Assembly: GCA_049317385.1 (NCBI GenBank)
Contig: JBMOIJ010000001.1
Span: forward strand, 468-64,467
Length of the DNA stretch: 64,000 nucleotides
Direction: 5' to 3'
DNA from: Acidimicrobiia bacterium
GTDB lineage: Bacteria; Actinomycetota; Acidimicrobiia; IMCC26256; JBMOIJ01
In this document: positions 1,205-27,659 of the stretch, in pieces
Layout: the number at the start of each line of letters is the position of its first letter
How positions within the stretch are numbered: the first letter of the stretch is position 1
Made by a program: the position numbers and the translations under genes
Notes under the pieces: model-generated
What the model was told of the DNA's origin: nothing
The model's input: the letters and a program-made list of their open reading frames with translations, nothing else
The model's database searches: none

Positions 1205-1528
1205 TCAGCCCCCGAGGATGTCGATCTTCTGGCCCGGAGCGAGCGTGACGATGGCGCGCTTCTGCGAAGCGAGCGTCGACATGCCTCCGGTGCGGCGGTT
1301 GCGACGTCGCTTGCCCTTGCGGTTGAGCGTCTTCACACTCGCGACACGCACTTCGAAAATGGTTTCGACGGCCTGCTTGATCTCGATCTTGTTGGCGTCG
1401 CGGCTGACGACGAACGTGTACACGTTGTCGTCCATCGCGGCGTACGACTTCTCGGAGATCACCGGTCGCACGATTACGCTGCGCAGACGTGCGAGGTTGC
1501 GCAGCCGGTCGAGTTCGTTGCCAGCCAT
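1205..1528 (-). CDS. rplW: 50S ribosomal protein L23
   Basis: 107-aa ORF with ...VIVRPVISEKSY...YTFVV...ANKIEIKQAVE. It sits between rplD and rplB. Confidence 0.9.
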   Translation of the reverse strand: MAGNELDRLRNLARLRSVIVRPVISEKSYAAMDDNVYTFVVSRDANKIEIKQAVETIFEVRVASVKTLNRKGKRRRNRRTGGMSTLASQKRAIVTLAPGQKIDILGG

Positions 1529-2208
1529 CAGGCGTCCTCCCCGTTTCCGGTGAAGCGCGCCAACGTGGCGTCGAGCGTGGTCCTGGAGAACACGATCCAG
1601 TCGTTGACCAGCACGTCGTACGCGTTGAGTTCACGCGGCAAGATCAATTGCACGTACTCGCCGAGGTTGCGGAACGAAAGCCACACCGCTTCTTCGGTGT
1701 TGTCGACCACGATCAACACGCGGTCTTCACGCTCGCCCTTCGTGCGCAGACCAAGCGACTGCAGAATTTGGAGCGCCTGCTTCGTCTTGGGCTCGCTGAT
1801 ACCCCAGTCGTCGACCACGACGACCCGCTCGCTGGCCGCCCGGTCGGACAGTGCCGAACGCAATGCGAGCGACACCATCTTCTTGGGGGTTTTCTGCGAG
1901 TAGTCACGCGGCTTCGGGCCGTGTGCAATGCCGCCGCCGCGCCAGATGGGCGAACGGCTCGAACCGGCACGAGCACGGCCGGTGCCCTTCTGCTTCCACG
2001 GCTTGGCTCCACCACCGCTGACCTCGGCCCGCGTCTTGGTGGAGTGCGTTCCCGCACGCTTCGCGGCGAGCTGCGCCGTGACGACCTGGTGCATCACCGG
2101 GATGTTGGGCTCGAGGCCGAACACGTCGCCCGGAAGCTGCACGTCGCCGGCCGCTGCGCCCTTGGTGTTCTTCACCGCCAGCTTCACTGCTTCGCCCGAT
2201 GCGCTCAT
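1528..2208 (-). CDS. rplD: 50S ribosomal protein L4
   Basis: 226-aa ORF with ...[35 protein letters not shown]. Its stop overlaps the rplW start. Confidence 0.95.
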
Positions 2209-2864
2209 GACCCGCTCCCCGACTTGCTGGGCAGCTTGGCGGCGTTGCGCAACAACACCACGCCACCGATGGGACCCGGCACCGAGCCACGCACGAGCAA
2301 CAAGTTGCGCTCGGCGTCGGCTTCGACGATCTCGAGGTTCAGCGTGGTGGTCTTCACGTTGCCGTACTGACCCGCCATGCGCACGCCCTTGAAGACACGT
2401 GCCGGAGTGGCGCAGGCACCGATCGAACCCGGCGCACGGTGGTGCTTGTGGTTACCGTGCGACGCGCCCTGGCCCTTGAAGTTGTGACGCTTCATGCCAC
2501 CGGCAAAGCCCTTGCCCTTGCTGATGCCGGTGACGTCAACGCGCTCACCCTTTTCGAACACGTCGGCCGAGATCACCTGGCCGAGTTCGAAGGACGAGGT
2601 GTCGTCGACACGCAGCTCGGCGAGGTGCTTCGACGCCGGCACGTTCGCCTTGGCGAGGTGACCGAACTTGGCCTTCGTGAGGCGGCTCGGCTTCGTTTCG
2701 TCGAACGCAAGTTGCACGGCGGTGTACCCGTCGCGTTCCGCAGTCTTCACTTGGGCGATGTGGCAGGGCCCGGCTTGGATGACGGTGACCGGTATCACCC
2801 GGTTCTGCCCATCCCACACCTGGGTCATGCCGAGCTTGCGCCCGAGGATGCCCTTACTGGCCAT
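2205..2864 (-). CDS. rplC: 50S ribosomal protein L3
   Basis: The track ORF 2205-3149 is trimmed to the ATG at 2862-2864, which gives [18 protein letters not shown], a canonical L3 N-terminus. AAGGAA precedes the start. Confidence 0.9.
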
Positions 2865-3174
2865 CGTGGTTCCTTGTCCGGTGGCGCATCGGGGTGCGCC
2901 GCACGCGAACGCTCCGCCACTGCAGAGTGCGCAGTGAGCGGAGCGTGGATTCGGTTGTGCCGTCTGGTACCGGACCGAACCGGCCTGGACGGACGTCGTT
3001 TGCGAACTTGTTGACGCGCCACAGCCGGGGCCGGGGCACGGGGACCAAATCGTAGCCGCTCGAGCCGCCGGCGCCAAACGGGCCGGCTCCGCATCGATGC
3101 GAGTGCGGTGCCCTCGAACGAGAGCGGCCGGCCCGCAGGCCGGCCGCATCAGGATTCAGAACCCGCAGCTGGGA
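2865..3174 (-). promoter_or_regulatory. 310-nt structured non-coding spacer between rpsJ and rplC
   Basis: Three hairpins seen in the spacer. One has a 14-bp bulged stem (2910-2945). A second, GGCGCA/TGCGCC, lies just before the rplC SD (2883-2900). A third is listed separately at 3124-3147. The only ORFs here are high-GC artefact frames. Confidence 0.5.
3124..3147 (-). terminator. GC-rich hairpin directly after rpsJ (terminator/attenuator-like)
   Basis: Stem GCGGCCGGCC, loop of 4 nt, stem GGCCGGCCGC, about 28 nt downstream of the rpsJ stop. On the minus strand it is followed by TCTCGTT, a weak U-tract. Confidence 0.4.
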
Positions 3175-3498
3175 TCAGACCTGCTGGATCTTGATCTCGA
3201 TGTCGACGCCTGCCGGCAGGTCGAGCCGCTGGAGCGACTCCACCGTCTTGCCGGTGGGCTCGACGATGTCGAGCAGACGCTTGTGGATACGCATCTCGAA
3301 GTGCTCTCGCGAGTCCTTGTCGACGTGCGGTCCACGGATCACGCACACACGGTGAATCTCGGTCGGCAACGGAACCGGGCCCCGCACCTTCGCCTGCGTC
3401 CGCACGACCGTCTCGACGATCTTCTTCGTCGACTGGTCGATGATCTCGTGGTCGTAGGCCTTGAGACGGATCCGAATCTTTTGCCCTGGAGCAGCCAT
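3175..3498 (-). CDS. rpsJ: 30S ribosomal protein S10
   Basis: The ORF is trimmed to the ATG at 3496-3498, giving [23 protein letters not shown]...RLLDIV, typical of S10. It lies 19 nt downstream of the tuf stop. Confidence 0.93.
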
Positions 3499-3517
3499 GT
3501 AAGTGATCGCGCCTTCG

Positions 3518-4708
<1,191 letters not shown>

Positions 4709-4733
4709 CGGATTTCGCTCCTTACGTATGGTC

Positions 4734-4777
4734 GTCGTTGCGGCTCGGCAGGTTACCTGCCTCGCTTCCGCAACGAC
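4734..4777 (-). promoter_or_regulatory. Composite stem-loop in the fusA-tuf spacer
   Basis: The outer 10-bp stem is GTCGTTGCGG/CCGCAACGAC. It encloses an inner hairpin, GGCAGG-3nt-CCTGCC. TAAGGAG (the tuf SD) follows on the minus strand. Confidence 0.45.
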
Positions 4778-4815
4778 TCCGATTGTTGATAAACGGGGGG
4801 ATTCGGACGGCCGCG

Positions 4816-6924
4816 CTACTCGCCGCGAGCCTTGGCGATGATTTCTTGCGAGACCGACTCGGGTACCTGTTGGTAGGAGTCGAACTGCATCGTGTAGGTC
4901 GCGCGCCCTTGGGTACGTGACCGAAGGTCGGTAGCGTACCCGAACATTTCCGACAGCGGCACGTAGGCCCGAATGGTCTGCGCGTTGCCCCGCTGCTCCA
5001 TGCCCTCGACGCGGCCACGGCGAGAGTTCAAGTCGCCGATGACGTCGCCCATGTAGTCCTCGGGGGTGACCACTTCGACCGCCATGATCGGCTCGAGGAT
5101 GACCGGCTTGGCCATGCGGACGGCTTCCTTGAAGCCCATGGAACCCGCGGTACGGAAGGCCATTTCCGAGGAGTCGACCTCGTGGTACCCACCGTCGGTG
5201 AGGGTCACCTTCACGTCGACCACCGGGAAGCCGGCCAGCACACCCGTGCCCATGGCCTGCTCCACGCCGACGCCCACGGCCGGGATGTATTCCTTGGGCA
5301 CACGACCACCGGTGACGGAGTCGCCGAACTCGTAGCCGTTGCCGGCGCCCGCCGGCTCGAGGTCGAGCACGATCTTGGCGAACTGCCCCGAACCACCCGT
5401 CTGCTTCTTGTGCACGTAGGTGTGGCCCTTCACCGGCGAGGTGATGGTCTCGCGGTAGGCGACCTGCGGCTTGCCGACGTTGGCTTCCACGCCGAACTCG
5501 CGCATCATGCGGTCGACGAGCACCTCGAGGTGGAGCTCGCCCATGCCCTCGATGATGGTCTGGCCGGTCTCTTCGTCGGTGTGGACCCGGAAGGTGGGGT
5601 CTTCATCGGAAAGCGACGCCAACGCCTTGCCCAGCTTGTCCTGGTCGTTCTTGGTCTTGGGCTCCACCGCCACCGAGATGACCGGCTCAGGGAACTCCAT
5701 CTTTTCGAGGATGATCTGGCCCTCTTTGAAGCAAAGCGTGTCACCAGTGGTGGTCTGCTTGAAGCCGATGCCCGCCACGATGTCGCCGGCGTACGCCACG
5801 TCGATGTCTTCGCGGTGGTTGGCGTGCATGCGAAGGATGCGACCGATGCGCTCCTTCTTGTCCTTGGTGGAGTTGAGGACTTCCGAGCCCTTCTCGAGCT
5901 TGCCCGAGTAGATGCGGAAGTAGGTGAGCTTGCCGTGCGGGTCGGCCACGATCTTGAACGCCAGCGCACTGAACGGCTCGCGCACGTCGGCGTGACGCTC
6001 GATGGGCGCACCGGTCTTAGGGTCGGAACCCACGATGGCCGGAATGTCGAGCGGGCTCGGCAAGAAGTCGACCACTGCGTCGAGCATGGGCTGCACGCCC
6101 TTGTTCTTGAATGCCGAGCCACACAGCACCGGCACGAACTCGCCGGCGATGGTGCCCTTGCGAATGGCGTGCTTCACGTCGTCGCCGGTGAGTTCCTCGT
6201 CGGCGAGGTACTTCTCCATGATGTCTTCGTCGGCGGCGGCCACGAGGTCGATCAGTTCGTGGCGGTACTCGTCGGCCTGCGCTTTGAGGTCGTCGGGGAT
6301 GTCGGTGACCTCGAACTTCGCACCCTCTTCCTTGTCGTCGATGGGCCACACGATGGCCTTCATCTGGACGAGGTCGACGATGCCGCGGAAGTCGCCTTCG
6401 GCGCCGATGGGCAGGTTGATGACTGCCGGCGTCGCGTCGAGACGATCCTTGATCATGTCGACACAACGAAAGAAGTCCGCACCAGTGCGGTCCATCTTGT
6501 TCACGAAGCAGAAGCGTGGGACGTTGTACTTGTTGGCCTGGCGCCACACCGTTTCGGACTGCGGCTCCACACCGGCAACCGCGTCGAACACCGCAACTGC
6601 GCCGTCGAGGACGCGCAAGCTGCGCTCCACCTCGACGGTGAAGTCGACGTGACCCGGCGTGTCGATGATGTTGATTTCGTGACCGTCCCACTGACAGGTG
6701 GTGGCCGCCGAGGTGATGGTGATGCCGCGCTCTTGCTCCTGGACCATGTGGTCCATGACCGCGCCACCCTCGTGCACTTCACCGATCTTGTAAGTGCGAC
6801 CGGTGTAGAAGAGGATGCGTTCGGTCGTGGTGGTCTTGCCCGCGTCGATGTGGGCCATGATCCCGATGTTGCGGGTTTGGTTGAGCGGGGTCTTGCGCCC
6901 GGCGCTCGCGGCGGCGTCAGCCAT
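4816..6924 (-). CDS. fusA: Elongation factor G
   Basis: 702-aa ORF ...[25 protein letters not shown]...DTPGHVDF. Confidence 0.98.
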
Positions 6925-6960
6925 TGAATGCCTCGTTCGTGAGTTGGAGTCGCGCGCCGC

Positions 6961-7431
6961 TTACCAGCGGTAGTGCGCGAAGGCCTTGTTGGACTCGGCC
7001 ATCTTCTGGAGGTCTTCCTTGCGCTTCATCGCGGCGCCGATGCCGTTGCTGGCGTCGAGCAGCTCGTTGGCAAGGCGTTCGGCCATCGTGCGCTCGCGAC
7101 GTTGCCGCGAGAACCCAACGATCCAGCGGACAGCCAGCGTGGTGGCCCGACGAGGACGCACCTCGACCGGCACCTGGTAGGTGGCGCCACCAACGCGACG
7201 GCTGCGCACTTCGAGCTCGGGGCGTACGTTCTCGACGGCGCGCTTCATGGTGGGAAGCGGGTCCGAACCCGTCTTCTCTTCGATGCGCTTCAGTGCGTCG
7301 TACACGATGCGTTGCGCCGTGGCGCCCTTGCCGCGCAGCAACACTTTGTTGATGAACTGCGTGACGATGACCGATCGGTAGATGGGGTCGGGTTGAAGTT
7401 CACGACGGGGAGCGGGACCCTTGCGCGGCAT
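6961..7431 (-). CDS. rpsG: 30S ribosomal protein S7
   Basis: 156-aa [21 protein letters not shown]...AFAHYRW. Confidence 0.95.
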
Positions 7432-7433
7432 GA

Positions 7434-7802
7434 TCAGCCCTTCTTCGCGCCGTAGCGACTACGGGCCTGCTTACGGTTGTTGACGCCACTCGCGTCGAGC
7501 GCGCCACGAATGATCTTGTAACGAACACCCGGCAGGTCCTTCACACGACCGCCACGCACCAACACGATGCTGTGCTCCTGGAGGTTGTGGCCTTCACCGG
7601 GGATGTAGGCCGTGACCTCGACGCCCGAGGTGAGCCGCACACGCGCGATCTTGCGCAACGCCGAGTTCGGCTTCTTCGGAGTGTGTGTACGCACCTGCGT
7701 GCACACCCCGCGACGCTGGGGCGAACCCTTGAGGGCAGGGGTCTTCGACTTGTCCTGCTTGGACTGGCGGCCCTTGCGGACCAGCTGCTGAATCGTGGGC
7801 AC
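7434..7802 (-). CDS. rpsL: 30S ribosomal protein S12
   Basis: The track ORF is trimmed to the GTG at 7800-7802, giving (V)[14 protein letters not shown]..., a canonical S12 N-terminus of 122 aa. TAGGAGC lies upstream. Confidence 0.9.
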
Positions 7803-7932
7803 GGTGCTCCTAAGGCACAGATCAATAAAAGAGTCGAACGCGAACGGGGGTCGAAGCGGCGCCCCGGAAGGCAGCCAACTCCTGCGCGACGCCCTGATGA
7901 CAACGCAACAGGGCGCAGAACGCCGGAGGGAA

Positions 7933-8002: not shown

Positions 8003-8737
8003 TCAGTGATACCGCCCGGGCGCCAAGCTCGATCGCTCGCGTTCGGCCCGCATCGCCGTGGCCAACTCGACGACCCGTTGCCCCAGACCACCCAACGTGG
8101 CATCTGGGAGCCTGTCGAGCCGGGCGAACTGAGCAATCTCCACCTGCTCGTTCGCAACGCCGATACTGAGGACTGCAGCATTGCGAGCCGCACGCACGTC
8201 GAGAACGTTGCTGCTGACGTGGGCCAATACCGGCTGGCGAGGGTTCGCATCACCCACCGCGGCGGCCACGATCATGGGTCGCTCCACCCCATCACCGAAA
8301 CCACCGACCGAGAACCGTTCGGGTGCGAGACCCGCAGCCGCCAACCAGCGGGAGGCCACCGCCCGCGTGGCCCCGGACACCATGCCAAGCGCAAACCGCT
8401 CGGTCTCGGCCGCGTCGAGCACTTCCACCGCACCCGGGACCGCAACCACTTCCGCCCCGTCGGCGAGCAGCTCGGCCCACGCCGCATCGAGTGCGGCACC
8501 GTACTGCTGCGCGAAGCCCACTGGTGCTTTCGATCCGGTGAGGTAGTGCGCGATGCCCCACACCGTCTCGGGCAGCCGACGCTTGGCGCCCACGTCCCAC
8601 TCGATGACGCCCCGACCGCTGAGGTGAAGCGGGGTCGTGGCCCCCACCGCACGCAACGCACGACGATGGGCCTCGAGGTGCAGCGCCGGGTCGATGGACA
8701 CCAACGTGTCGTCGACGTCGAACGTGATCGTGAACAT
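8003..8737 (-). CDS. HAD-superfamily hydrolase
   Basis: The N-terminus [12 protein letters not shown] carries the DxDxT motif I. A later ...GDG...D region is also present. I prefer the ATG at 8735-8737 (AAGGAG 11 nt upstream). The longest ORF starts with GTG at 8749. Confidence 0.7.
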
Positions 8738-8756
8738 GTATTCCAACACTCCTTGT

Positions 8757-8788
8757 CGGAAAGAAGGCCCCGCCGAAGCGGGGCCTTC
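8757..8788 (-). terminator. Intrinsic terminator-like hairpin after rpoC
   Basis: The stem is a perfect 11 bp, GAAGGCCCCGC/GCGGGGCCTTC. The tetraloop is TTCG on the minus strand, followed by TTT. It lies about 26 nt downstream of the rpoC stop. Confidence 0.65.
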
Positions 8789-8813
8789 AATGATTCACCG
8801 ACGGGCAGCCCGT

Positions 8814-12971
<4,158 letters not shown>

Positions 12972-17785: not shown

Positions 17786-18046
17786 GGGTGGTTCCAGTCT
17801 CCCGTTCAACGTTCTGGTCGGGGCCTCGACCCAGAGGGAGGCACCACGCGACCGCCGCAGCTCAGCGCTGCACCCGACGCAGGAGCCACCTCGTTCGGCG
17901 GGGCAGGAGCCCCATTACCTCGCCACACCTGAGGGGTGGAGAGACCGAAGGTCTTCGGCGCTCGATTGCGGAACGAGAAGCTAGCAGGCCGGTCCAGCCC
18001 CCGTCACCAGCGGATTCGGCACCGGGCCGAATCGTGCGGCGCGGGG
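17786..18046 (-). promoter_or_regulatory. rplJ 5' leader/promoter region (possible L10 autoregulatory leader)
   Basis: A 261-nt non-coding gap upstream of rplJ with small hairpins: AGACC-3nt-GGTCT at 17942-17954 and ATTCGGC-5nt-GCCGAAT near 18013-18031. The role is assigned by position only. Confidence 0.3.
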
Positions 18047-19192
18047 TCAGCGCCCGACGCCGCCAGCGCTCCCCGGCTGGGGATGCTCGGGCCCGTCGGA
18101 CGCCACGGTCCTCGGCGCGTTGACCACGTAGTCCTTCTCGACGGTGCCGACCTCGGCCGAACCCCGCAGGTACGAACCCTTGTGGACCGTGCCGTGGCGC
18201 CCTGGAATCCCGAACATCGGCCGCTCCGGCGTGTACGTGACGTTGTGGCCCCGCACGGTGTGGAGCGCCTGCGCGAACGACTGGCCGCTGCGCAACGCGT
18301 CCTCGACGACTCGCCGGAGGTCGTCGGTGAGCGTGACCTCTTCGTAGCGACCGAGCGCACCACCGTGCTGCTTGCGGAACTTCTTCGCGAGCTTTTCGCT
18401 CGGGTCGCGCGTGACGCGCTCGACACCCTTTTCGAGATTCAGGAACGCCCATGTGGCCAGGAGCGGTCGCGTCAACCCGCCCACGGTGAGGAGGTTGTCG
18501 GCCTCCAACCCAGCGGTGATGTTGATCTCGTTGTTGTAGCTGGTGGCCGGGATGGCCCACGCCCCCATGGCGTCGAGCCGCAGCACGTCGCCGATCTTGT
18601 CGGTCGCGAACGCGATGGCCCCGAGGAAGACGATGTCGTCCTTCGTGGGCTCGACGTAGAGATCCATTTGGTACGCAAACGCTTCACCATCGACCAAGGC
18701 GGACGGGTCGGATCCATCCACGACGTCGACGACCGCTCGGAACTGAGCCAGATCGAAGTCGCTCACCTTCGCGCCCCACGAGTGATAGCGCTGGAAGTCG
18801 AGGTACTTGAAGCCCGGCACCTGGGTCTCGATCCAGAACTCGTCGTAGGGACGCGCGAGCGGCGGCACCGCTTCAAGGAGGTGACGGTCGATCCCGGCCA
18901 ACCACTTCGGAACCCAGTCGCTGGCGATTGCATGCACGTCGAGGTTGCCGGTCTCGATACGCGGCGCCCGCCGCGCCCGTTGCTGCTCGAGTTCGTAACG
19001 ATCGACCGCTGCCCCCACCTGGTAGTCGCTGGCGTTGGGGGCGAGCCCAGGAAACCGCGAGCCATCAGGGCCCACGGGCGCCAACTTCCCGGCCTGAACC
19101 AGCGGGCCAGCATTGTCGGGGTCGCGCATGAAGTCGGCCAGGCGGGACGGCCGAGCGCCGAAGGTACGGAGGCGATCAATGAGACGGCTCAT
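18047..19192 (-). CDS. Hypothetical soluble protein (~381 aa) inserted between rplA and rplJ
   Basis: A long ORF in the same orientation as the flanking r-protein genes. I prefer the ATG at 19190-19192 (MSRLIDRL...). The longest ORF starts with TTG at 19228. There are no TM segments and no motif I can assign. The C-terminus has ...HTVRGHNVTYTPERPMFGIPGRHGTVHKGSYLRG. Confidence 0.6.
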   Translation of the reverse strand: MSRLIDRLRTFGARPSRLADFMRDPDNAGPLVQAGKLAPVGPDGSRFPGLAPNASDYQVGAAVDRYELEQQRARRAPRIETGNLDVHAIASDWVPKWLAGIDRHLLEAVPPLARPYDEFWIETQVPGFKYLDFQRYHSWGAKVSDFDLAQFRAVVDVVDGSDPSALVDGEAFAYQMDLYVEPTKDDIVFLGAIAFATDKIGDVLRLDAMGAWAIPATSYNNEINITAGLEADNLLTVGGLTRPLLATWAFLNLEKGVERVTRDPSEKLAKKFRKQHGGALGRYEEVTLTDDLRRVVEDALRSGQSFAQALHTVRGHNVTYTPERPMFGIPGRHGTVHKGSYLRGSAEVGTVEKDYVVNAPRTVASDGPEHPQPGSAGGVGR

Positions 19193-19257
19193 GCGCCTAT
19201 TGTCCGGTTTCCTGCAGTTTTGGGGCAAGTCTGGGGCTCAGCGAGCCCCAGACCCCC

Positions 19258-19965
19258 TCACACTGCGGCTTCGGTCTGGATGCGGTTCGGGTCGATCTTG
19301 ATGCCCGGGCCCATGGTGGAGCTGAGCGAGACGCCCTTGATGTAGCGACCCTTCGCGGCCGACGGCTTGGCCCGCACGATCTCGTCGTGCACCGCTTCGA
19401 GGTTCTGGGCCAGCTTGTCGGCGTCGAAGCTCACCTTGCCGATGGGCACGTGCACGTTGCCATGACGGTCGGTGCGGTATTCCACCCGGCCACCCTTGAA
19501 CTCGGTGACCGCCTTGGCGACGTCGGTGGTGACAGTGCCGGTCTTGGGGTTCGGCATGAGGCCACGCGGACCGAGCACTCGACCGAGCTTTCCGACCTGC
19601 GCCATGAGGTCGGGCGTGGCGATGGCAAGGTCGAAGTCCATGAAGCCGCCTTCGACCCGGGCAACCAGGTCTTCGGCACCCACAACATCGGCGCCCGCTT
19701 CTTCGGCCGCGCGCGCCGCGTCGCCCGCGGCGAACACGGCGATGCGCACGGTCTTGCCCGTGCCGTTCGGCAACGCGACGGTGCCGCGCACCACCTGGTC
19801 GGCCTTGCGCGGGTCGACGCCCAAACGGAACGCAACGTCGACGGTCTCATCGAACTTGCGCTTGGCGAAGGACTTCACCTTCTCGATGGCCTCGGGGCCC
19901 GAGAACAACTGTTCGCGGTCGAAGGTCTTCGCCGCGTCGGAGTAGAGCTTTCCGTGCTTGGTCAT
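19258..19965 (-). CDS. rplA: 50S ribosomal protein L1
   Basis: 235-aa [16 protein letters not shown]...[34 protein letters not shown] overlap with the rplK stop. Confidence 0.96.
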
Positions 19966-20393
19966 CAGCCGACCACCTCGATGCCCATCGAGCGCGCCGT
20001 GCCCTCGATCTGCTTCATCGCGCCTTCCATGTCGACCGCGTTGAGGTCGGGCATCTTGGTTTCGGCGATCTGACGCACCTGGTCGCGGGTGACCGAACCA
20101 ACCTTGGTGGTGCGAGGGTTGGACGAACCCTTGTCGAGCCCCGCGGCCTGACGCAGCAGCACCGGCGCCGGCGGAGTCTTGAGAACGAACGTGAACGACC
20201 GGTCTTCGTAGATGCTGATCTCGACCGGCACCACGGTGCCCTTTTGGCCTTCTGTCTGCGCGTTGTACGCCTTACAGAAGTCCATGATGTTGACGCCGTG
20301 CGGACCGAGAGCGGTACCGACCGGCGGAGCGGGCGTCGCGCCTCCAGCTTGAATCTGGATCTTCACGACGGCCGCAAGCTTCTTGCGAGCCAT
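19965..20393 (-). CDS. rplK: 50S ribosomal protein L11
   Basis: Trimmed to the ATG at 20391-20393, giving [44 protein letters not shown]. Confidence 0.95.
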
Positions 20394-20496
20394 GATGCTG
20401 TGTTCCTTTCGCGAACGGATTCGCTCCGACTGGCCGGCCCGGTGGCCGGCTCGACGTTTCCCGCCGTGGCGTCGTCCTCCACGGCGGCCGCCCACA

Positions 20497-20814
20497 CTAG
20501 CCGCTCGGCTTTCCGAGCCCTTTGGGGAGCCGGCGGCGCACATGCCCGAGCGCCCGCTCCGCCCACACCACGTCGCGGGCCAGCAGCGCCAACCCGGCCA
20601 CAATCACCAGCAGCCCGGGACCAGGCAGTACCAGCATGGCAACCCCCGCCAACAGGACAACGAAGCCGGCTCCCATCCGAACCAGCCGGACCACGACGTG
20701 GCTCCGTGCCTGGTCCATCGTCTCCTCGCGAGGCCCGGTCTCGAGTTCGGCCGCAATCGCCGCGTCCCGGAGGCGCTCGGGCAGGTGATCCGCAGAGTCC
20801 GTGTGCGCCGTCAT
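20497..20814 (-). CDS. PGPGW-motif small membrane protein
   Basis: Two hydrophobic helices flank [27 protein letters not shown], the PGPGW-family pattern. The ATG at 20812-20814 lies 2 nt after the upstream stop. Confidence 0.6.
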
Positions 20815-20816
20815 CG

Positions 20817-21869
20817 TCAGTACCGCAGCTTCAAGGCAACCCGCCCGTGGCCGGCGAGTGAACCGTCGGGGACCACGGTGCAACGACCACGTTTGGCCAG
20901 CACGACTTCGATGAGTTCGTCGACGAGGTCGTCGACGACCCCGGGCGCATCACGGTCGATCGCGCGGATCGGGTGTCCCGTGACCGAATCGACGTACGCG
21001 GGGTACTCGAAGCTCTCTTCGACCAGGAGCAGATCACCCCGCCCGTGACTGGCGAGGAGCCATACCTCTTCGATACCGAACGCAATCCGCGTCCCTGCTG
21101 CGGATTCGAGTTCGGCGCGCGCCTCGATCACCTCTTCCGCCAAGAGCTGTTCGACCACAGGTCCGACCAACGCGGCCAGCACAGTCGGGTCGGGGAAGTC
21201 CTTAGTGGCACGCACCACACCCGACACCGCCATGCGGAGTTCGCTGCGCGCCATCACCTGCGACACACGCGGCTCGGCCCCTACCAGCACGATCGGCAAG
21301 GGGTCATCGCGGTGATGCGCACGGAAGATCGCATCGAGACGCCGCACGTAACGCCCTAGGCGCTCGTCCCGATCGAACGAACGCTCGGAGTCGGCCGCAT
21401 CGGGATCGGGGATCAACGGAAACCCTCCCCCTCTCACCTCCGACAGACCGAAGCCGAGCCCTTCGTAGCAACGCGTGACGCGCTCACTCAAGGTCACGAC
21501 GCGGTATCGGGGGCTGCACTGGCGCGCCCGCACCAGGTCTCTGGTCGCGAACGTCTCGTCGACCACCACGCGTTCACGCACTCGGACCGGCAAAGGCTCG
21601 ATCTGCTGCAACCGCTCGTTGACATACACCGCAATCCCGCGCTGGCCGGGTTGCACCTCGACCGACTCGATCAACTTCTCCAGGTCAGCGACCAGGTGCG
21701 CGCAACGATCGTCACCGAACTCGCGTGCCAACCGCCCCGCCGCATCTCGGCCGAGCGCACGGAGCCGCTGCCGCACGATCGACGCCGGTTGGTCGTCGAC
21801 AGGCACGAGCAGCGAAACGGACGGGTACGCCACCGAACCTTGAATGAACGCAACATCGAGAGAGGTCAT
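20817..21869 (-). CDS. eRF1/Pelota-like protein (bacterial aeRF1-like, baeRF-type); no GGQ motif
   Basis: 350 aa. It has an N-terminal ...SLLVPVD.. block and a central ...YRVVTLSERVTRCYEG.. block. The C-terminus reads ...AFGIEEVWLLASHGRGDLLLVEE...VDDLVDELIEVVLAKRGRCTVVP...VALKLRY. This is the layout I associate with baeRF families, recognised by eye only. Confidence 0.45.
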   Translation of the reverse strand: MTSLDVAFIQGSVAYPSVSLLVPVDDQPASIVRQRLRALGRDAAGRLAREFGDDRCAHLVADLEKLIESVEVQPGQRGIAVYVNERLQQIEPLPVRVRERVVVDETFATRDLVRARQCSPRYRVVTLSERVTRCYEGLGFGLSEVRGGGFPLIPDPDAADSERSFDRDERLGRYVRRLDAIFRAHHRDDPLPIVLVGAEPRVSQVMARSELRMAVSGVVRATKDFPDPTVLAALVGPVVEQLLAEEVIEARAELESAAGTRIAFGIEEVWLLASHGRGDLLLVEESFEYPAYVDSVTGHPIRAIDRDAPGVVDDLVDELIEVVLAKRGRCTVVPDGSLAGHGRVALKLRY

Positions 21870-22744
21870 GACCGAACTCCTTCCATCTGCGGACTTCGCA
21901 TCCTGCGGAGACGCTCGACGCGCTCCTCGATCGGGGGATGGGTCATGAACAGCCGCGCGAACTGCACGCGCTTGCCGGTGATCGGGTTGACAATGAACGC
22001 GCTCGCCTGAGCCGGCTGCAGATCCATCGGCACCTGCTGCGAGCGCGCTTCGAGCGTCAGTAATGCTTGGGCCAGCGGCTCCCCATCGCCGATGATCTCC
22101 GCGCCACCTCGGTCGGCCTCGAACTCGCGAGCCCGACTCAGCGCCAACTGCAGGATCGTGGCCGCAACGGGAGCCAGAAACGCAATGAGCAGCGTCGCGA
22201 ACGGATTCTGCCCCTCGTCATCGTCACTGGAACCGAACATGCCAGCGAACAATGCAATGTTGGCCAAGGCCGAAATTCCTGTTGCGATTGCCGCGGCCAC
22301 CGACCCAATGAGGATGTCGCGATTTCGGATGTGAGCCATCTCGTGCGCAAGGACAGCCCGCACCTGGTCCGGTGGGCAGAACGTCATCAGCCCTTCGGTC
22401 ACGGCGACCGCAGCGTGCTTGGGACTGCGACCAGTTGCGAACGCGTTGGGCTGCGGCGACGGCGACACGTACACCCGCGGCTTCGGAAGATTCGCGCGCT
22501 GCGCCAACTCCTCGACCATCGCATGCAGCTGCGGCGCCGACGCTTCGTCGACCTCGTGCGCTCCCGCCGCCCGAACGGCCAGGCGATCGGAGAACCAGTA
22601 GGTGAACCCAACGAGGGCCAAACCAATGGCCAAACCGATCAGCGCACCCGAAGCTCCGCCAACCAAGCTCCCGACGGCCACGAGGAGACCACCGGCCGCC
22701 GCCAGCAGGACGAACGTCTTCACCGTGTTCTTGAACGCCATCAT
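21866..22744 (-). CDS. htpX: Zinc metalloprotease HtpX (M48 family)
   Basis: 292 aa with N-terminal TM helices, the zinc motif HEMAHIRNRD, ...EFEADRGGAEI... and ...MTHPPIEERVERL. Confidence 0.9.
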   Translation of the reverse strand: MMAFKNTVKTFVLLAAAGGLLVAVGSLVGGASGALIGLAIGLALVGFTYWFSDRLAVRAAGAHEVDEASAPQLHAMVEELAQRANLPKPRVYVSPSPQPNAFATGRSPKHAAVAVTEGLMTFCPPDQVRAVLAHEMAHIRNRDILIGSVAAAIATGISALANIALFAGMFGSSDDDEGQNPFATLLIAFLAPVAATILQLALSRAREFEADRGGAEIIGDGEPLAQALLTLEARSQQVPMDLQPAQASAFIVNPITGKRVQFARLFMTHPPIEERVERLRRMRSPQMEGVRS

Positions 22745-22753
22745 CGTGACTCC

Positions 22754-23053
22754 TCAGAAGTCGAAGAGCTCGCCGAGGAAGCTCTCTTTCTTCCTCTTCT
22801 TTCCGTAGTAGCGGTAGTCATCGTCGTAGTGGCGCCGGTCGTCGTAGTGGCGCCGGTCGTCGCGTCGATCCCGGTAGCGGTCATCCCCGCCGCCCCGCGC
22901 GGCCACCGGCTCCGGCGAGGGCACACTGCGCTCAATGAGCTTGTCGAGTTCGCCTCGATCGAGCCAAACACCCCGACACTCCGGGCAGTAGTCGATTTCA
23001 ATTCCTTGACGATCACTGATTGCCAGCTGTCCATGTCCCTGTGGGCACTGCAT
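22754..23053 (-). CDS. TFIIB-type zinc-ribbon protein with Arg/Asp/Tyr-rich tail
   Basis: MQCPQGHG...IDYCPECRGVWLDRGELDKL (two Cys/His pairs), ending in ...KKRKKESFLGELFDF. The longest ORF starts with TTG at 23068. Confidence 0.65.
   Translation of the reverse strand: MQCPQGHGQLAISDRQGIEIDYCPECRGVWLDRGELDKLIERSVPSPEPVAARGGGDDRYRDRRDDRRHYDDRRHYDDDYRYYGKKRKKESFLGELFDF
22821..22856. repeat. Perfect 18-bp tandem duplication inside the Zn-ribbon gene
   Basis: tcgtcgtagtggcgccgg occurs twice in a row, followed by a partial third copy. It is in-frame and encodes DDRRHY DDRRHY. Confidence 0.9.
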
Positions 23054-23064
23054 GGGAGTTCCTT

Positions 23065-25752
23065 TCAAGGTTCGAGATCGATGACCACCGGCTCGGGGTT
23101 ACGCCGGCGATCGATGAACTTCAACACTTCGGAAACCGCGATGATGGAGCTCGCCACCGCAAGCATCAGGAGCCAATCGAGCACCGAAAGCTGCGCAGCG
23201 ATCTCGTCGCCGGTGATGAGCCGCTGCAACGGCGACCACAGCACTGCGAGCACCTGCAGCCCCGCGACGACTGCCAGCGCCCACCAGAGTCGTGCGTTGC
23301 GCAACGTGTGTGAGCCGAACACGCTCAGACGATCGAATCGAGCGTTGAAGAGGTTGAACATCTGGAAGAGCACGAACGTGGTGAACGCCATCGTGGCCGC
23401 TCGAGCGTGCGCAATTTCCGAGATCTCACCAAGCTGGCCCGCGGCGTAGAAGTACACGCCGATCGTTCCCACCATCATCACCGTGGCGAGGGCGACGAGT
23501 CGCCGAATCCGTCGACCGTCGAGGATCTGCGCGTTGGCATTGCGCGGCGCACGGCGCATCGTGTCGGGATCGGGTGGGTCGACACCGAGGGCCAAGGCCG
23601 GGGGCCCGTCCATGATGATGTTCACCCAGAGCAGTGCGACCGGCGTGAAGAACACGCCGCCCCCGGCAGGGATCGCGAACAGGGTGGCAGTGAGAATCGT
23701 GAGGATTGCGCCCATGTTCGTGGCGAGCTGAAAGCGCACGAACTTCGTGATGTTGTCGTAGATCGTGCGTCCGCCCCGCACAGCATCGACGATCGTGGCG
23801 AAGTTGTCGTCGGTGAGCACCATCGCCGCCGCTTCCTTGGTGACCTCCGTTCCCGTGATCCCCATGGCGACGCCGATATCGGCGCTCTTCAGTGCCGGCG
23901 CATCGTTCACCCCGTCGCCAGTCATGGCAACCACATCACCGCGGGCGCGAAGCGCATTCACCAAGCGCACCTTGTGCTCCGGCGCAACCCGTGCGAACAC
24001 GGCGATGTCGTCGACTCGGCGAGTGAGTTCTTCATCGCTCATCTGGTCGAGATCGGCGCCGGTTACGACATCGCCACGAAGCCCCAACGAGCGCCCGATG
24101 ACACCGGCAGTGACGGCGTGGTCGCCAGTGATCATCTTCACGGCAATGCCGGCGCGGCGGCACAACGCAATGGCATCGCGCGCTTCGGGCCGCTGAGGAT
24201 CCTGGATACCGAACAGCCCGTCGAGCTGGAGGTCGGATGCGAAGGCATCGAGTGCATCGGATCGGAAGTCCGCGACTGGGATTCGCCGCGTCGCTACCGC
24301 CAGCACTCGCAGGCCGTCGCCAGCGAAGGCCTCGTTCGCATCCGTCGCTCGACGCCGCATGTCGGCATCGGCCACTCGCCGCAACACGACGTCGGGGGCA
24401 CCCTTGACGATCGCAAGAACGTCGTTGCCGTCGGAATGAAACGTCGCCATGAACTTGTGTGCAGAGTCGAACGGGATCTCGGCGATTCGCGGGAATCGCT
24501 CATGGAGCGCCGGAAGATCGAAGCCGCCAGCTGCTCCGAGCAACGCTCCTTCGGTCGGGTCCCCCACAACCCGACCGTCATCGAGCCGCGCGTCGTTGCA
24601 GAGCGCGCCTGCCCTGACCAGCGCTCGGGCGCTCTCGGGCGGTCCGGCCTCGCCAATCGCGTGCGCATCACCGTCGCGCCAACACGCAACGGCGGTCATC
24701 CGGTTCATCGTGAGCGTGCCGGTCTTGTCGGTGCAGATCACGGTCGTGCAGCCGAGCGTTTCGACAGACGCCAGCCGCTTCACGATCGCGTGACGCTTCG
24801 CCATCTGATGGGTACCGATGGCAAGCGTCACGGTGAGCACCGCAGGGAGCCCCTCGGGAATCGCCGCGACGGCAAGCGCCACTGCCTGCAAGAGCGTGTC
24901 GGAGAACGACTGGCGTCGGATCAGCCCGACGATGGTGACGGCGAAGACGGCCGCACCCGCAATGAGGGTGAGACGCATGGCCAGACGATCGATCTGGCGC
25001 TGGAGCGGCGTCTTGCCCGGATCGGCGTCTCGCAACATCCCTGCGACGCGCCCAATCTCGGTGTCGGCGCCGGTTGCGGTCACGACCATCTCCCCGCGAC
25101 CACGGGTCACGGTGGTGTTCATGAATCCCATCGAGCGCCGCTCGCTCAGCGCCGCCGCCTGCGCGACCGGTTCCGTCTGCTTGGCCACCGGCAACGATTC
25201 GCCGGTGAAGGCCGCCTCGTCGACTTCGAGGTCGGTGGCCGCCACCCACCGACCGTCGGCCGGGACTCGATCGCCCGGCGACACCAAGACCACGTCACCC
25301 GGAACGATCTCCGCAGCGGGAACCTCAATGACGTGGCCATCGCGCCGGACCCGGGCGGTGGTCACGAGCATTCGCTTGAGTGCCGCGAGGCTCGATTCAG
25401 CGCGCGACTCCTGTACGAATCCGAGCAACGCGTTGATGATCACGACCACCGCAATGATGATCGGATCTTTCAGCTCTCCACCTACGACGTAGGCGACCAC
25501 CGCCGCCACCAACAACACGAGGACAAGGCGGTTGGTGAACTGCTCGGCGAGGAGCTTCCACTTCGACTTGGGCGGAGCCGACGCAAGTTCGTTGCGGCCG
25601 TACGCGTCGATCCGTGCAGCTGCCTCGGCCGCCGTCAGGCCGGCAGAAACCGAGACCTGGAGACCGCGTTGCACCGCGTCAGGGGCCTGAGACCACGACG
25701 GGAGCGCGCCGTCGCTCGGGACAGCTGTCGAATCAGTTGCAGTCGAAACCAC
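23065..25752 (-). CDS. P2-type cation-transporting ATPase (Ca2+/CtpF-like)
   Basis: 895 aa with ICTDKTGTLTMNRM (phosphorylation site), AIPEGLPAV in TM4, MITGDH, and VAMTGDGVNDAPALKSADIGVAMG. The start is a GTG with GAAGGGAA upstream. Confidence 0.9.
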   Translation of the reverse strand: MVSTATDSTAVPSDGALPSWSQAPDAVQRGLQVSVSAGLTAAEAAARIDAYGRNELASAPPKSKWKLLAEQFTNRLVLVLLVAAVVAYVVGGELKDPIIIAVVVIINALLGFVQESRAESSLAALKRMLVTTARVRRDGHVIEVPAAEIVPGDVVLVSPGDRVPADGRWVAATDLEVDEAAFTGESLPVAKQTEPVAQAAALSERRSMGFMNTTVTRGRGEMVVTATGADTEIGRVAGMLRDADPGKTPLQRQIDRLAMRLTLIAGAAVFAVTIVGLIRRQSFSDTLLQAVALAVAAIPEGLPAVLTVTLAIGTHQMAKRHAIVKRLASVETLGCTTVICTDKTGTLTMNRMTAVACWRDGDAHAIGEAGPPESARALVRAGALCNDARLDDGRVVGDPTEGALLGAAGGFDLPALHERFPRIAEIPFDSAHKFMATFHSDGNDVLAIVKGAPDVVLRRVADADMRRRATDANEAFAGDGLRVLAVATRRIPVADFRSDALDAFASDLQLDGLFGIQDPQRPEARDAIALCRRAGIAVKMITGDHAVTAGVIGRSLGLRGDVVTGADLDQMSDEELTRRVDDIAVFARVAPEHKVRLVNALRARGDVVAMTGDGVNDAPALKSADIGVAMGITGTEVTKEAAAMVLTDDNFATIVDAVRGGRTIYDNITKFVRFQLATNMGAILTILTATLFAIPAGGGVFFTPVALLWVNIIMDGPPALALGVDPPDPDTMRRAPRNANAQILDGRRIRRLVALATVMMVGTIGVYFYAAGQLGEISEIAHARAATMAFTTFVLFQMFNLFNARFDRLSVFGSHTLRNARLWWALAVVAGLQVLAVLWSPLQRLITGDEIAAQLSVLDWLLMLAVASSIIAVSEVLKFIDRRRNPEPVVIDLEP

Positions 25753-25951
25753 CGGGTTCCCTTCATCAGGTTCCCGGAGGTCTCTCCCGCCACAGCGAAC
25801 TGCGGCCGACGGTGCCGGGCGCTCATAAAGCGCCGAGGTGACGACACCGTTGCAGGGGATACTCCCCTCCGACAGGTTGTGTTCGGCGCAGTATGAAGCT
25901 CCGGATGAATCCCGTCAAGGGAAACCGGAACTTGGCTGCGCCTTTGGGTCG

Positions 25952-26644
25952 CTAGAGCTTGGCGACCTGGCCGAACTCGAGCTCGACGGGAGTCTCGCGG
26001 CCGAAGATGTTCACGAGCACCTTGAGCTTGGACTTGTCGACGTCGATCTCGGAAATTGCGCCGTTGAAGTCCGCGAACGGACCCGCAACCACTCGCACCT
26101 GCTCGCCCACTTCGAACTCGAGACGAGGCCGCACCTTCTTCTCGACGACGATGCCGCCTTCGACTTCGACTTCGCCGGCACCGAGGATGTTCTCGACTTC
26201 CTTGCGTGACAGCGGCGTGGGCTTCGCGCCGTTGCCCACGAAGCCGGTGACACCCGGTGTGTTGCGCACGACGTACCAACTGTCGTCGTTCAGGTTCATG
26301 CGCACCAGCACGTAACCCGGGAAGACCTTCTTCTGGACGACGACCTTGCGGCCCTGTTTGAACTCGATGACGTCTTCCATGGGGATGACGACCTCGTAGA
26401 TGCGCTCCTCCATGTTCATGGAGTGGATACGGTTCTCGAGGTTGGACTTCACCTTGTTCTCGTAGCCCGCGTATGAGTGGATGACGAACCACTTGCCGGG
26501 GCGGTCGTACGGGCTCTCGGCGCGGGGGGCCGGCACTTCGGCTTCGGCTTCCGCCTCGCCTTCGAACTCGTCGGCGAACGTGAGGACCTCTTCGCCCTCT
26601 TCGGTCGCTTCGGCTTCATCGCTGGGTGCAAAAGGATCAGTCAT
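25952..26644 (-). CDS. nusG: Transcription termination/antitermination factor NusG (acidic N-terminal extension)
   Basis: ...[20 protein letters not shown]...[10 protein letters not shown]...[13 protein letters not shown]... with a KOW region at the C-terminus. Confidence 0.95.
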
Positions 26645-26649
26645 CGGGC

Positions 26650-26934
26650 TTACTTGTAGATGAATCGGACAAGTTGGTTGGCGCCGTTGTCGACCAGAAA
26701 GATGAACACCGTCATGAGCACGACGGCGATCATCACCACGATGGTGGAGTTCACGACTTCACGCCGGGTGGGCCAGGCAACCTTGCGGAGCTCTTCGACG
26801 ACCTCGCGGAGGAACTGCCGCGGCGGGGTGCGCTCTTGTTGCGGGGAGTTCGGCGTGGGGCGCGCTTGAGCGGGTCGCCGTTGGTCGGCGCCCTGCTTGG
26901 CCATCATCCGCTTCTGTTCGCGGTTCATGTTCAC
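26650..26934 (-). CDS. secE: Preprotein translocase subunit SecE
   Basis: 94 aa with ...[32 protein letters not shown]... It sits between tRNA-Trp and nusG. The start is either the GTG at 26934 or the ATG at 26928. Confidence 0.88.
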
Positions 26935-26965
26935 GGCGATCGCCTCGTACGCGTGGGGTTGGCAG

Positions 26966-27038
26966 CAGGGCAGGAGGGACTCGAACCCCCAACCGCCGGT
27001 TTTGGAGACCGGTGCTCTACCAATTGAGCTACTGCCCT
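26966..27038 (-). tRNA. trpT: tRNA-Trp (anticodon CCA)
   Basis: I folded a 73-nt cloverleaf by hand. Acceptor AGGGCAG/CTGCCCT, anticodon loop CTCCAAA, T-loop TTCGAGT. CCA is not encoded. Confidence 0.9.
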
Positions 27039-27158
27039 CGGTTGGGCCTCGGCCGGGAGGTCCGGAATCGGCAGGTTAGCAGCGCTTGTGGCGCCACTCC
27101 CCGTCGATCGGCCCTTCGCCCCGGGCCGAGGCGACCCAAGGCCAGGGCGGCCTACGGA

Positions 27159-27323
27159 CTAGCGGGTCTCTTTGTGGAGCGTGTGGCGCCGCTCGAACCG
27201 GCAGTACTTCTTGAGCTCGATGCGCTCACGATCGTTGATCTTGTTCTTGATCGTGATGTAGTTGCGGCGCTTGCAGTCCTGGCACTCCAGGATCACCTGC
27301 ACCCGCTTGTCGTTCTTGGGCAT
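27159..27323 (-). CDS. rpmG: 50S ribosomal protein L33
   Basis: Trimmed to the ATG at 27321-27323, giving MPKNDKRVQVILECQDCKRRNYITIKNKINDRERIELKKYCRFERRHTLHKETR (54 aa). Confidence 0.93.
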   Translation of the reverse strand: MPKNDKRVQVILECQDCKRRNYITIKNKINDRERIELKKYCRFERRHTLHKETR

Positions 27324-27399
27324 TCCGGTTCTGCTCCACTCGCTGGGCCGCCCGGAAACCACCCAGGGGACCTGTTCAATTCGGTTGGTTGTGGGTCGG

Positions 27400-27473
27400 T
27401 AGCGGGGGCGGGACTTGAACCCGCGACACCACGATTATGAGCCGTGTGCTCTGACCACCTGAGCTACCCCGCC
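27400..27473 (-). tRNA. metT: tRNA-Met, elongator type (anticodon CAT)
   Basis: A 74-nt cloverleaf with acceptor GGCGGGG/CCCCGCT and anticodon loop CTCATAA. The anticodon stem lacks the three G-C pairs of an initiator tRNA. Confidence 0.85.
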
Positions 27474-27505
27474 AGGGTGCCTGGGATCGTGAAATCCCAG
27501 GTGGG

Positions 27506-27578
<73 letters not shown>

Positions 27579-27659
27579 ACGCCGCCCCCTGCCGGGAGCG
27601 GTGCGGCGAAGAGCATACTCAGCGCGGGGCCAACGGGGCCGAGGAGTACCGTCCGAGCG

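Follow-up and report, generated by a model that had tools for sequence, protein, structure and literature searches.

The DNA analysed here (the window) is a stretch of 64,000 nucleotides from an Acidimicrobiia bacterium (assembly GCA_049317385.1, contig JBMOIJ010000001.1, positions 468 to 64,467 of the forward strand), and all coordinates are window positions. The gene string in question lies on the minus strand in the order rpmG, tRNA-Trp, secE, nusG, five inserted genes, rplK, rplA, a 393-aa open reading frame (ORF), rplJ, rpoB and rpoC. From the nusG side, the inserted genes encode a predicted cation-transporting P-type ATPase (23065–25752, 895 aa, GTG start), a Zn-ribbon protein (22754–23053, 99 aa), a predicted HtpX-type protease (21866–22744, 292 aa), a 350-aa protein assigned by sequence and modelled fold to the Balon family of ribosome hibernation factors (20817–21869), and a predicted small membrane protein of the PGPGW family (20497–20814, 105 aa). 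They fill the 5,558 nt between nusG (25952–26644; Pfam NusG and KOW domains; stop codon TAG at 25952–25954) and rplK (L11; 19965–20393; Pfam Ribosomal_L11_N and Ribosomal_L11). The 199-nt spacer between nusG and the ATPase gene holds a riboswitch aptamer assigned to the yybP-ykoY (Mn2+) type (25771–25873, minus strand), located with a covariance model, Rfam family RF00080 and covariation. This controlling element is what was missing from the account of the locus given in the initial annotation. Intergenic gaps were read directly as 11, 9, −4 and 2 nt, the −4 being the ATGA at 21866–21869 that joins htpX to the 350-aa ORF. The ATG at 23053 was taken as the likely start of the Zn-ribbon gene, with an AAAGGAA ribosome-binding site and an independent gene call giving 99 aa. 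The five coding sequences, their minimal spacing and the htpX overlap had all been reported in the initial annotation, and every coordinate was confirmed to the base.

The nusG-ATPase spacer folded far better than shuffled sequences (minimum free energy (MFE) z-score −5.5). Scanning 13 kb with Rfam at E ≤ 1 did not pick up the riboswitch. It came to light when the sequences upstream of orthologous ATPases were compared by eye and proved to share the blocks GGGGAGUAUCCC ... GGCGGGAGAGACC. A focused Rfam search of 241 nt then returned RF00080 as the sole meaningful match (E 2.2e-5). A pattern search of Actinomycetota Balon loci, with 75–110 nt between two motifs, yielded about 50 elements, 48 after deduplication. 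The aptamer is laid out as P1, L1 (GGAGUA / GAGA) and P1.1, followed by a junction with P2, a 7-nt bulge (UCACCUC) and hairpin P3, and with hairpin P4. GGGAGUA, the bulge CA and AGACC were invariant in 47 copies, corresponding to G15–A21, C41 and A42, and A98–C102 of the window element. The L1 strands of the element read GGGGAGUA ... AGAGACC, and GGGGAGUA and GUC..CA also occur as blocks in the Rfam consensus. The invariant bulge CA is presumably the equivalent of the Mn-binding A41. In known members Mn2+ is contacted by an invariant bulge adenosine (PMC11672702).

Twenty-four copies including the window element were aligned with MAFFT (alignment A4), and the structure was drawn by hand because RNAalifold on MAFFT alignments found only some of the helices, P3 and P4 varying in length. 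In A4, 88.5% of cells were paired, against 79.1% after shuffling, and both sides of a pair had changed in 65 cells against 25; 0 of 500 shuffles reached either value. A covariance model (R1) was built from A4 and contains actinobacterial copies only, with no proteobacterial sequence. Searched against the window and 1.18 Mb of Balon loci, R1 gave 51 matches at E ≤ 0.01, all in Actinomycetota loci and covering 37 of the 42 such Balon loci. The window contained one match, at the aptamer coordinates, with 70.8 bits and E 7e-15, a score by construction since the element is among the 24 sources of R1. The NusG control loci, 322 kb in total, gave no match with E under 0.1. When the 51 matches were aligned to R1 (alignment A5, which is fitted to the model and favours the structure), 89.6% of cells were paired against 71.9% shuffled, both-side changes numbered 236 cells against 84, and compensatory changes were seen in 19 of 24 pairs; slid controls paired at 34–50%. 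The element is a conserved RNA structure with this distribution.

Membership in a known family was examined with R1 in 8 kb of E. coli DNA. The top two matches were the mntP leader (L173, 1964–2076; 21.7 bits, E 2.8e-4) and the alx leader (L174, 1874–1977; 19.8 bits, E 8.8e-4). RF00080 at its gathering score (Rfam 15) made no call on either of these leaders, both experimentally validated, and gave no match in 10 related loci. Because the validated leaders also fail at gathering, Rfam negatives carry little weight, and a new RNA class, suggested by absence from Rfam, was rejected on the same controls. The window RNA is assigned from its sequence to the yybP-ykoY (Mn2+)-type family, with predicted binding of Mn2+. 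It shares the L1 and bulge signatures with the units of E. coli mntP and alx, B. subtilis ykoY, L. lactis yoaB and S. pneumoniae mgtA, as well as the position in the 5′-UTR before TerC-family or P-type ATPase exporters and a predicted ON switch at translation initiation; with mntP and alx it also shares recognition by R1. Unlike those units, the window unit includes genes for a putative hibernation factor, for a membrane protease and for a pair of small proteins, and in related genomes the switch stands directly before Balon without a transporter. The window-type bulge (UCAnCAC) and the sub-threshold or absent Rfam scores also set it apart. Among the targets of the yybP-ykoY class are TerC, MntP and two P-type ATPases, YoaB and MgtA (PMC8632737), the mgtA switch responds to Ca2+ as well (PMC11672702), and COG3809 genes are common behind Mn2+ riboswitches (PMC5737381).

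The 350-aa protein matched Pfam PF18845 (baeRF_family3) with E 1.5e-17 and 64.9 bits (gathering 31.5). Against NCBIfam NF052287 ('AOC03_06830 family ribosome hibernation factor') it scored 192 bits (E 1.5e-56), below the equivalog cut-off of 330, and it is therefore read as a family member and not as an equivalog of the P. urativorans protein. The single sequence matched P. urativorans Balon in the PDB (8rd8_B) with E 2.7e-11. A profile of 33 relatives matched the same chain over its full length with E 1.3e-62, and Msmeg1130 with E 4.8e-11. An AlphaFold 2 (AF2) model was obtained with pLDDT 89 and pTM 0.80. Foldseek placed this model next to 8rdw_B, 8rdv_B and 8rd8_B (E ~1e-25 to 1e-23, TM 0.72–0.74), Msmeg1130 (TM 0.76–0.77) and Rv2629 (TM 0.71), with aRF1/eRF1 at only ~0.5. 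The translation was read directly and contains neither GGQ (peptide release) nor NIKS (stop codon). A two-strand insertion in the C-terminal domain, which contacts EF-Tu in Balon, is predicted in the model (strands 291–293 and 300–302), and this segment aligns unbroken to Balon residues ~310–330. As a candidate region for the HP motif, which contacts the decoding centre in Balon, KTHREHPAND of Balon was aligned with PVDDQPASIV of the window protein; the aligned column varies within the 33-sequence family alignment.

By these profile matches and its predicted fold, the 350-aa protein is a Balon-family ribosome hibernation factor (baeRF family 3). The initial annotation had described it as a GGQ-less bacterial eRF1-like protein, and the profile, AlphaFold and Foldseek searches on 20817–21869 returned eRF1-like family and fold matches that make this description more precise. 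With P. urativorans Balon, Msmeg1130 and Rv2629 it has in common the aeRF1-like three-domain fold, the lack of GGQ and NIKS and the C-terminal two-strand insertion, and with P. urativorans Balon the full-length profile match of its family; it differs from the former in lying inside the secE-nusG | rplKA cluster behind a metal-type riboswitch, and from the latter in falling below the equivalog cut-off. Balon, Rv2629 and Msmeg1130 sit in the ribosomal A site and inhibit translation, with the peptidyl-transferase centre inert and no peptide release (PMC10901736). Balon genes usually lie in stress-response operons, and the neighbours named are RaiA, Hsp20, OsmC/OsmY, HdeD, MarC, EmrB and RtcB (Helena-Bueno et al. 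2024, PMC10901736). The same discovery paper describes the action on the ribosome and names no inducing signal; it is silent on riboswitches, on metals and cations (calcium, manganese and zinc included) and on TerC, protease, HtpX, ATPase and PGPGW.

All Pfam domains of a P2 ATPase were present in the first gene product (Cation_ATPase_N, E1-E2_ATPase, Hydrolase, Cation_ATPase_C), and the motifs DKTGT and PEGLP were read in its translation. Its best NCBIfam match was TIGR01522 (PMR1-type Ca ATPase). The M6 segment NIIMDGPPALALG is presumably PMR1-like. The protein is predicted to be a P2A-type (PMR1/SERCA-like) cation-transporting P-type ATPase that exports a cation. The Zn-ribbon protein matched PF13453 (E 2.8e-17) and has an R/D/Y-rich tail ending in KKRKKESFLGELFDF; COG3809 is presumably this Zn-ribbon family. 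HtpX matched PF01435 (M48; E 4.8e-38, 131 bits) and has the HEXXH motif as HEMAH; at 319 bits against a cut-off of 369 for the NCBIfam HtpX equivalogs, it is predicted to be an HtpX-type M48 membrane zinc protease. The last protein matched PF09656 (PGPGW; E 1.6e-15), with the motif reading PGPGL, and is probably a small membrane protein.

Genes following the 51 riboswitch copies were then compared. TerC was the first gene in 17 cases, 12 of which run on into Balon ~1.1 kb downstream. Balon itself came first in 12, a Zn-ribbon gene in seven (four continuing to Balon within the 1.5 kb scanned and one, L014, to HtpX) and a P2 ATPase in six. Two copies, in L088 and L006, precede a ~400-aa ORF and then an ATPase; in L088 the ORF, checked with Pfam, is an M50 protease. 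PGPGW was first in three copies, two continuing to Balon, and a DksA/TraR zinc finger in two, one continuing to Balon; two further copies had other or undefined first genes. Counting the window's own, 32 of the 51 units include a Balon gene. Since the same riboswitch stands before Balon, TerC, ATPase, Zn-ribbon and PGPGW genes, these families travel together, and since up to four separate riboswitch units exist elsewhere, the window string can be described as their fusion under a single copy. The genes of the DksA/TraR-type C4 zinc fingers are found in L062 (riboswitch 7317–7413, gene 7394–7849), directly upstream of Balon, and in L088 (riboswitch 3846–3957, gene 3341–3802, minus strand); a family of RNA-polymerase-binding factors may belong to the same regulon. 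The Actinomycetota contig L062 carries four riboswitch copies within 6 kb (1236–7413), which precede an ATPase, a Zn-ribbon gene, a 465-aa ORF without Pfam match, and the DksA-like gene followed by Balon.

In other Acidimicrobiia and Actinomycetota, homologues of the window partners adjoin close homologues of this Balon in varying order. The arrangements comprised ATPase, Zn-ribbon, Balon (L085); ATPase, PGPGW, Balon (L034); ATPase, Balon (L019 and L048); Zn-ribbon, PGPGW, Balon (L001); PGPGW, Balon (L083); Zn-ribbon, Balon (L025); Zn-ribbon, HtpX, divergent from Balon (L014); and M50 protease, ATPase, opposite Balon (L088). ATPase orthologues (50–59% identity) were found near Balon in L085, L034, L019, L048, L062, L006, L088 and L073, Zn-ribbon homologues adjoined it in nine loci, and a PGPGW gene was immediately upstream in L001, L034, L038, L053, L064 and L083. 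A TerC-family protein was the Balon neighbour in 23 further loci, mostly of Actinomycetes (Nocardioides, Mycolicibacterium). Outside Actinomycetota only two loci had any partner: L012 (cyanobacterium, ATPase 6.8 kb from Balon) and L050 (Abditibacterium, 1.8 kb). The initial annotation had asked whether the htpX-baeRF adjacency recurs in relatives; no counterpart was found, the nearest being the single divergent pair in L014. HtpX as a general Balon partner was rejected, as a candidate ORF in L005 from an iterated hidden Markov model search proved to be TerC and only L014 held. The ATPase of L014 was likewise rejected as an orthologue, being of the heavy-metal P1B type with an HMA domain. In L001, from an Acidimicrobiia relative, a heliorhodopsin gene (8267–9046) directly follows the Zn-ribbon, PGPGW, Balon unit.

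The position of the insertion was compared with 80 metagenome loci whose NusG is closest to that of the window (70–85% identity), 69 of which had enough downstream sequence. In all 69, rplK starts 0–226 nt past nusG, which bears out the earlier statement that the junction is normally contiguous, and none of the 69 has any of the five inserted genes (the ATPase, Zn-ribbon, Balon and PGPGW genes among them) between nusG and rplK. Conversely, neither nusG nor rplK was seen near homologues of the 350-aa protein in 82 loci (up to 8–10 kb per side), and the junction did not turn out to be the insertion point in these genomes, as the initial annotation had wondered. The insertion is specific to this Acidimicrobiia lineage, and its position is exceptional. 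A mobile-element origin was considered and rejected, as no notable flanking direct or inverted repeats, integrase, transposase or PADLOC hit were found. Third-position GC content (GC3) was 0.73–0.79 in four of the insert genes, which does not exceed the lowest values among the window's genes (0.79–0.91), 0.84 in the PGPGW gene and 0.82–0.88 in the flanks; the lower values fit acquisition from elsewhere or low expression.

The 103-nt spacer between the PGPGW gene and rplK folded no better than shuffles (z −1.6). It contains a hairpin, CCGCCGUGG-AGGACGACG-CCACGGCGG (20461–20487, minus strand), whose 9-nt loop AGGACGACG is identical in the nusG-rplK spacer of the closest relative (L089, 8622–8800), with compensatory changes in the stem between the two sequences compared. 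From its sequence the hairpin looks like a retained element of the ancestral nusG-rplK spacer. Its presence in both places suggests that the DNA entered immediately behind nusG without disturbing the former rplK leader, and in this sub-lineage the hairpin may serve rplKA as a conserved leader or attenuator.

A candidate promoter of the inserted operon, TTGACG-17 nt-CATACT (25890–25918, minus strand), was identified by consensus match only. It was the sole sigma-70-like match in 18000–27600 (9.6 kb, 0.7 expected by chance) and ends ~17 nt before P1 of the riboswitch. An imperfect long hairpin (GGCGCAG...CUGCGCC, 25885–25942, minus strand) directly follows the nusG stop and has the hexamers of this candidate promoter inside; it could be a nusG terminator or attenuator, or a fold competing with promoter use. 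The intergenic stretches of the five-gene string contain no site resembling a promoter or a terminator on the coding strand, which together with the gaps agrees with the earlier view of a single, translationally coupled unit. The aptamer ends 19 nt before the GTG of the ATPase gene. In the ligand-free MFE fold of the leader (z −4.5), P2, P3 and P4 form and the aptamer 3′ strand GAGACCUCCGGG pairs with CCCGGUGGUUUC, masking the GTG start; the predicted expression platform spans 25745–25784 (minus strand).

We infer the ligand, the ON logic, the co-transcription and the physiological purpose as follows. The five genes would form one operon, inserted directly behind nusG and ahead of the former rplK leader. 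Without ligand, the aptamer 3′ strand would pair with the ATPase start region; with ligand, P1/L1 would form, the start codon would be freed and the ATPase translated, an ON logic that is expected because the ATPase is a predicted exporter. The four downstream genes would follow through translational coupling, relief of polarity, or both. A translational switch at the 5′ end can reach distal genes only in these ways, which would account for the minimal spacing. The PMR1-like ATPase would export the cation, HtpX would act as a membrane protease, and the Balon-type factor would occupy the ribosomal A site and park ribosomes, with the Zn-ribbon protein and the PGPGW membrane hairpin as two putative small partners. 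Elsewhere in Actinomycetota genes of these families are neighbours too, though behind separate riboswitch copies, with TerC often replacing the ATPase and DksA-like zinc fingers also included.

Other explanations of the locus were weighed against this mechanism. The initial annotation had left a choice between a stalled-ribosome or translocon rescue module and a dormancy module. In a rescue module the eRF1-like protein would release or rescue ribosomes that have stalled while translating membrane proteins, and the nascent chains left stuck would be degraded by HtpX, which would suit the ATGA overlap of the two genes and the membrane-protein genes that flank them. Rescue was also raised by Burroughs and Aravind as one possibility for baeRF-1 proteins (PMC6514570). 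The protein here has neither GGQ nor NIKS and matches Balon over its full length and in fold, the characterised Balon proteins inhibit translation with an inert centre and release no peptide (PMC10901736), and HtpX accompanies Balon in one other locus only, L014. Rescue is on these grounds highly improbable, and the Balon-family identity supports dormancy as the better of the two earlier readings. An island for hypoxia or dormancy controlled by a transcription factor of the DosR kind, with the riboswitch irrelevant to Balon, was judged improbable too, though less so than rescue. Its appeal is the parallel, cited earlier as established and upheld here, with M. tuberculosis, where DevR boxes precede ctpF, the Rv2628-Rv2629 operon, the Rv2626c operon (with the M50 protease Rv2625c) and Rv0079, the same functional classes as in the window string (PMC3177182). 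In the DosR (DevR) regulon the Balon homologue Rv2629, the P2 ATPase CtpF and the membrane zinc protease Rv2625c are thus co-regulated, together with the further hibernation factor Rv0079. There a protein regulator acts on scattered operons, whereas in the window an RNA switch would act on genes physically joined in one operon, and the Balon genes are of different subclades. The window protein belongs to the Psychrobacter-type clade, as the profile values against Balon and Msmeg1130 indicate, no Dev box with ≤ 3 mismatches occurs in the 64-kb window, so that a DosR link in this genome is not supported, and the riboswitch is found in 37 of 42 Actinomycetota loci of the window's clade, with 12 copies directly before Balon.

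The riboswitch might instead control the cation ATPase only, the four downstream genes having hitch-hiked from a single insertion without shared function and being expressed by read-through or from internal promoters. This is unlikely, if somewhat less so than the DosR island. A distance of 19 nt separates the aptamer from the ATPase start, which is the only start that the predicted platform masks, and the low GC3 of the insert relative to its flanks fits recent acquisition. Against it, promoters would not fit into gaps of 11, 9, −4 and 2 nt, with no promoter-like or terminator-like sites seen, and Balon, Zn-ribbon and PGPGW genes each have their own riboswitch copy in other genomes, which places them in the same regulon whatever the local wiring. 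Finally, the source is a metagenome-assembled genome, and a second assembly with the nusG-ATPase junction was not found, which would be expected if the module did not truly lie between nusG and rplK and the contig were chimeric. Contigs from four other samples were 99.8–100% identical to the window over 19783–23815, three of them crossing the PGPGW-rplK junction and running from Balon into rplK and rplA, and base composition was even over both junctions. A chimera can accordingly be given almost no credence.

We consider it probable that a riboswitch regulon linking divalent-cation stress with ribosome hibernation is present in the window in fused form, under a single switch. Several points weigh against this. 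The RF00080 score of 25.2 bits lies under the gathering score of 45, and the copies in L014 and L040 give no RF00080 match even at E 10. The bulge reads UCAnCAC where the Rfam consensus has AACAUAC, so ligand specificity could differ. The higher covariation values come from A5, and the test on A4 was weaker yet positive. The substrate of the ATPase is uncertain because it misses the PMR1 equivalog cut-off (746 bits against 798). As a partner HtpX is rare, being found in one other locus (L014), with an M50 protease confirmed in one (L088). The nusG-ATPase junction is present in the source contig only, exact-protein look-ups with the ATPase and NusG having returned nothing, and we infer both the co-transcription and the riboswitch control of the four distal genes.

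A broader and rather doubtful extension of this regulon reading can be put forward tentatively. Rising free Mn2+ (or Ca2+/Mg2+), brought about by metal stress or by falling ATP, the main cation chelator, might switch on Balon hibernation through the riboswitch in Actinomycetota and so induce a coordinated shutdown set. Balon would park ribosomes, DksA-like factors would retune RNA polymerase, the TerC or PMR1-like pump would export the cation, and clearance of the membrane would fall to HtpX or M50 proteases. Balon would on this view work with cofactors that have so far gone unnoticed, the Zn-ribbon and PGPGW proteins, which might for instance tether parked ribosomes to the membrane in the manner of YqjD/ElaB.

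Balon and the yybP-ykoY riboswitch class are both known already. What appears to be new is the link of a metal-type riboswitch regulon to a hibernation factor, Zn-ribbon, PGPGW and DksA-like proteins and membrane proteases, and the fused form of this regulon lodged at the nusG-rplK junction. No literature linking yybP-ykoY to Balon, hibernation or eRF1-like proteins was found, although supplements of the 2015 primary riboswitch papers may list eRF1-like genes; the baeRF paper of Burroughs and Aravind makes no mention of riboswitches or metals (PMC6514570). For the trigger of Balon, this locus and its relatives offer Mn2+ or Ca2+ as a candidate, a riboswitch class with well-understood ligand chemistry being found at 37 related Balon loci. 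The regulon also provides a list of candidate hibernation partners (Zn-ribbon PF13453, PGPGW, DksA-like proteins, HtpX and M50 proteases), and would mean that yybP-ykoY riboswitches, known for regulating metal exporters, also take part in controlling the translation machinery.

The locus is also a rare case in which a gene junction that ranks among the most conserved in bacteria has been broken. The canonical order of rpmG, tRNA-Trp (26965–27038), secE (26650–26934) and nusG, then rplK, rplA (19258–19965), rplJ, rpoB and rpoC is kept, all three features with coordinates here being on the minus strand. Two departures are absent from the sampled relatives: the foreign operon of 5.56 kb at nusG-rplK, and the 393-aa ORF between rplA and rplJ (18047–19228, minus strand). 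The latter had no Pfam, NCBIfam or PADLOC match and matched the phage family phrog_20769 (function unknown) with E 2.7e-9. In 29 relatives the rplA-rplJ gap measures 115–790 nt and contains no homologue of the ORF; with this ORF the super-operon carries two insertions that are specific to the lineage. Its GC3 is 0.85, and its codon-position GC is gene-like.

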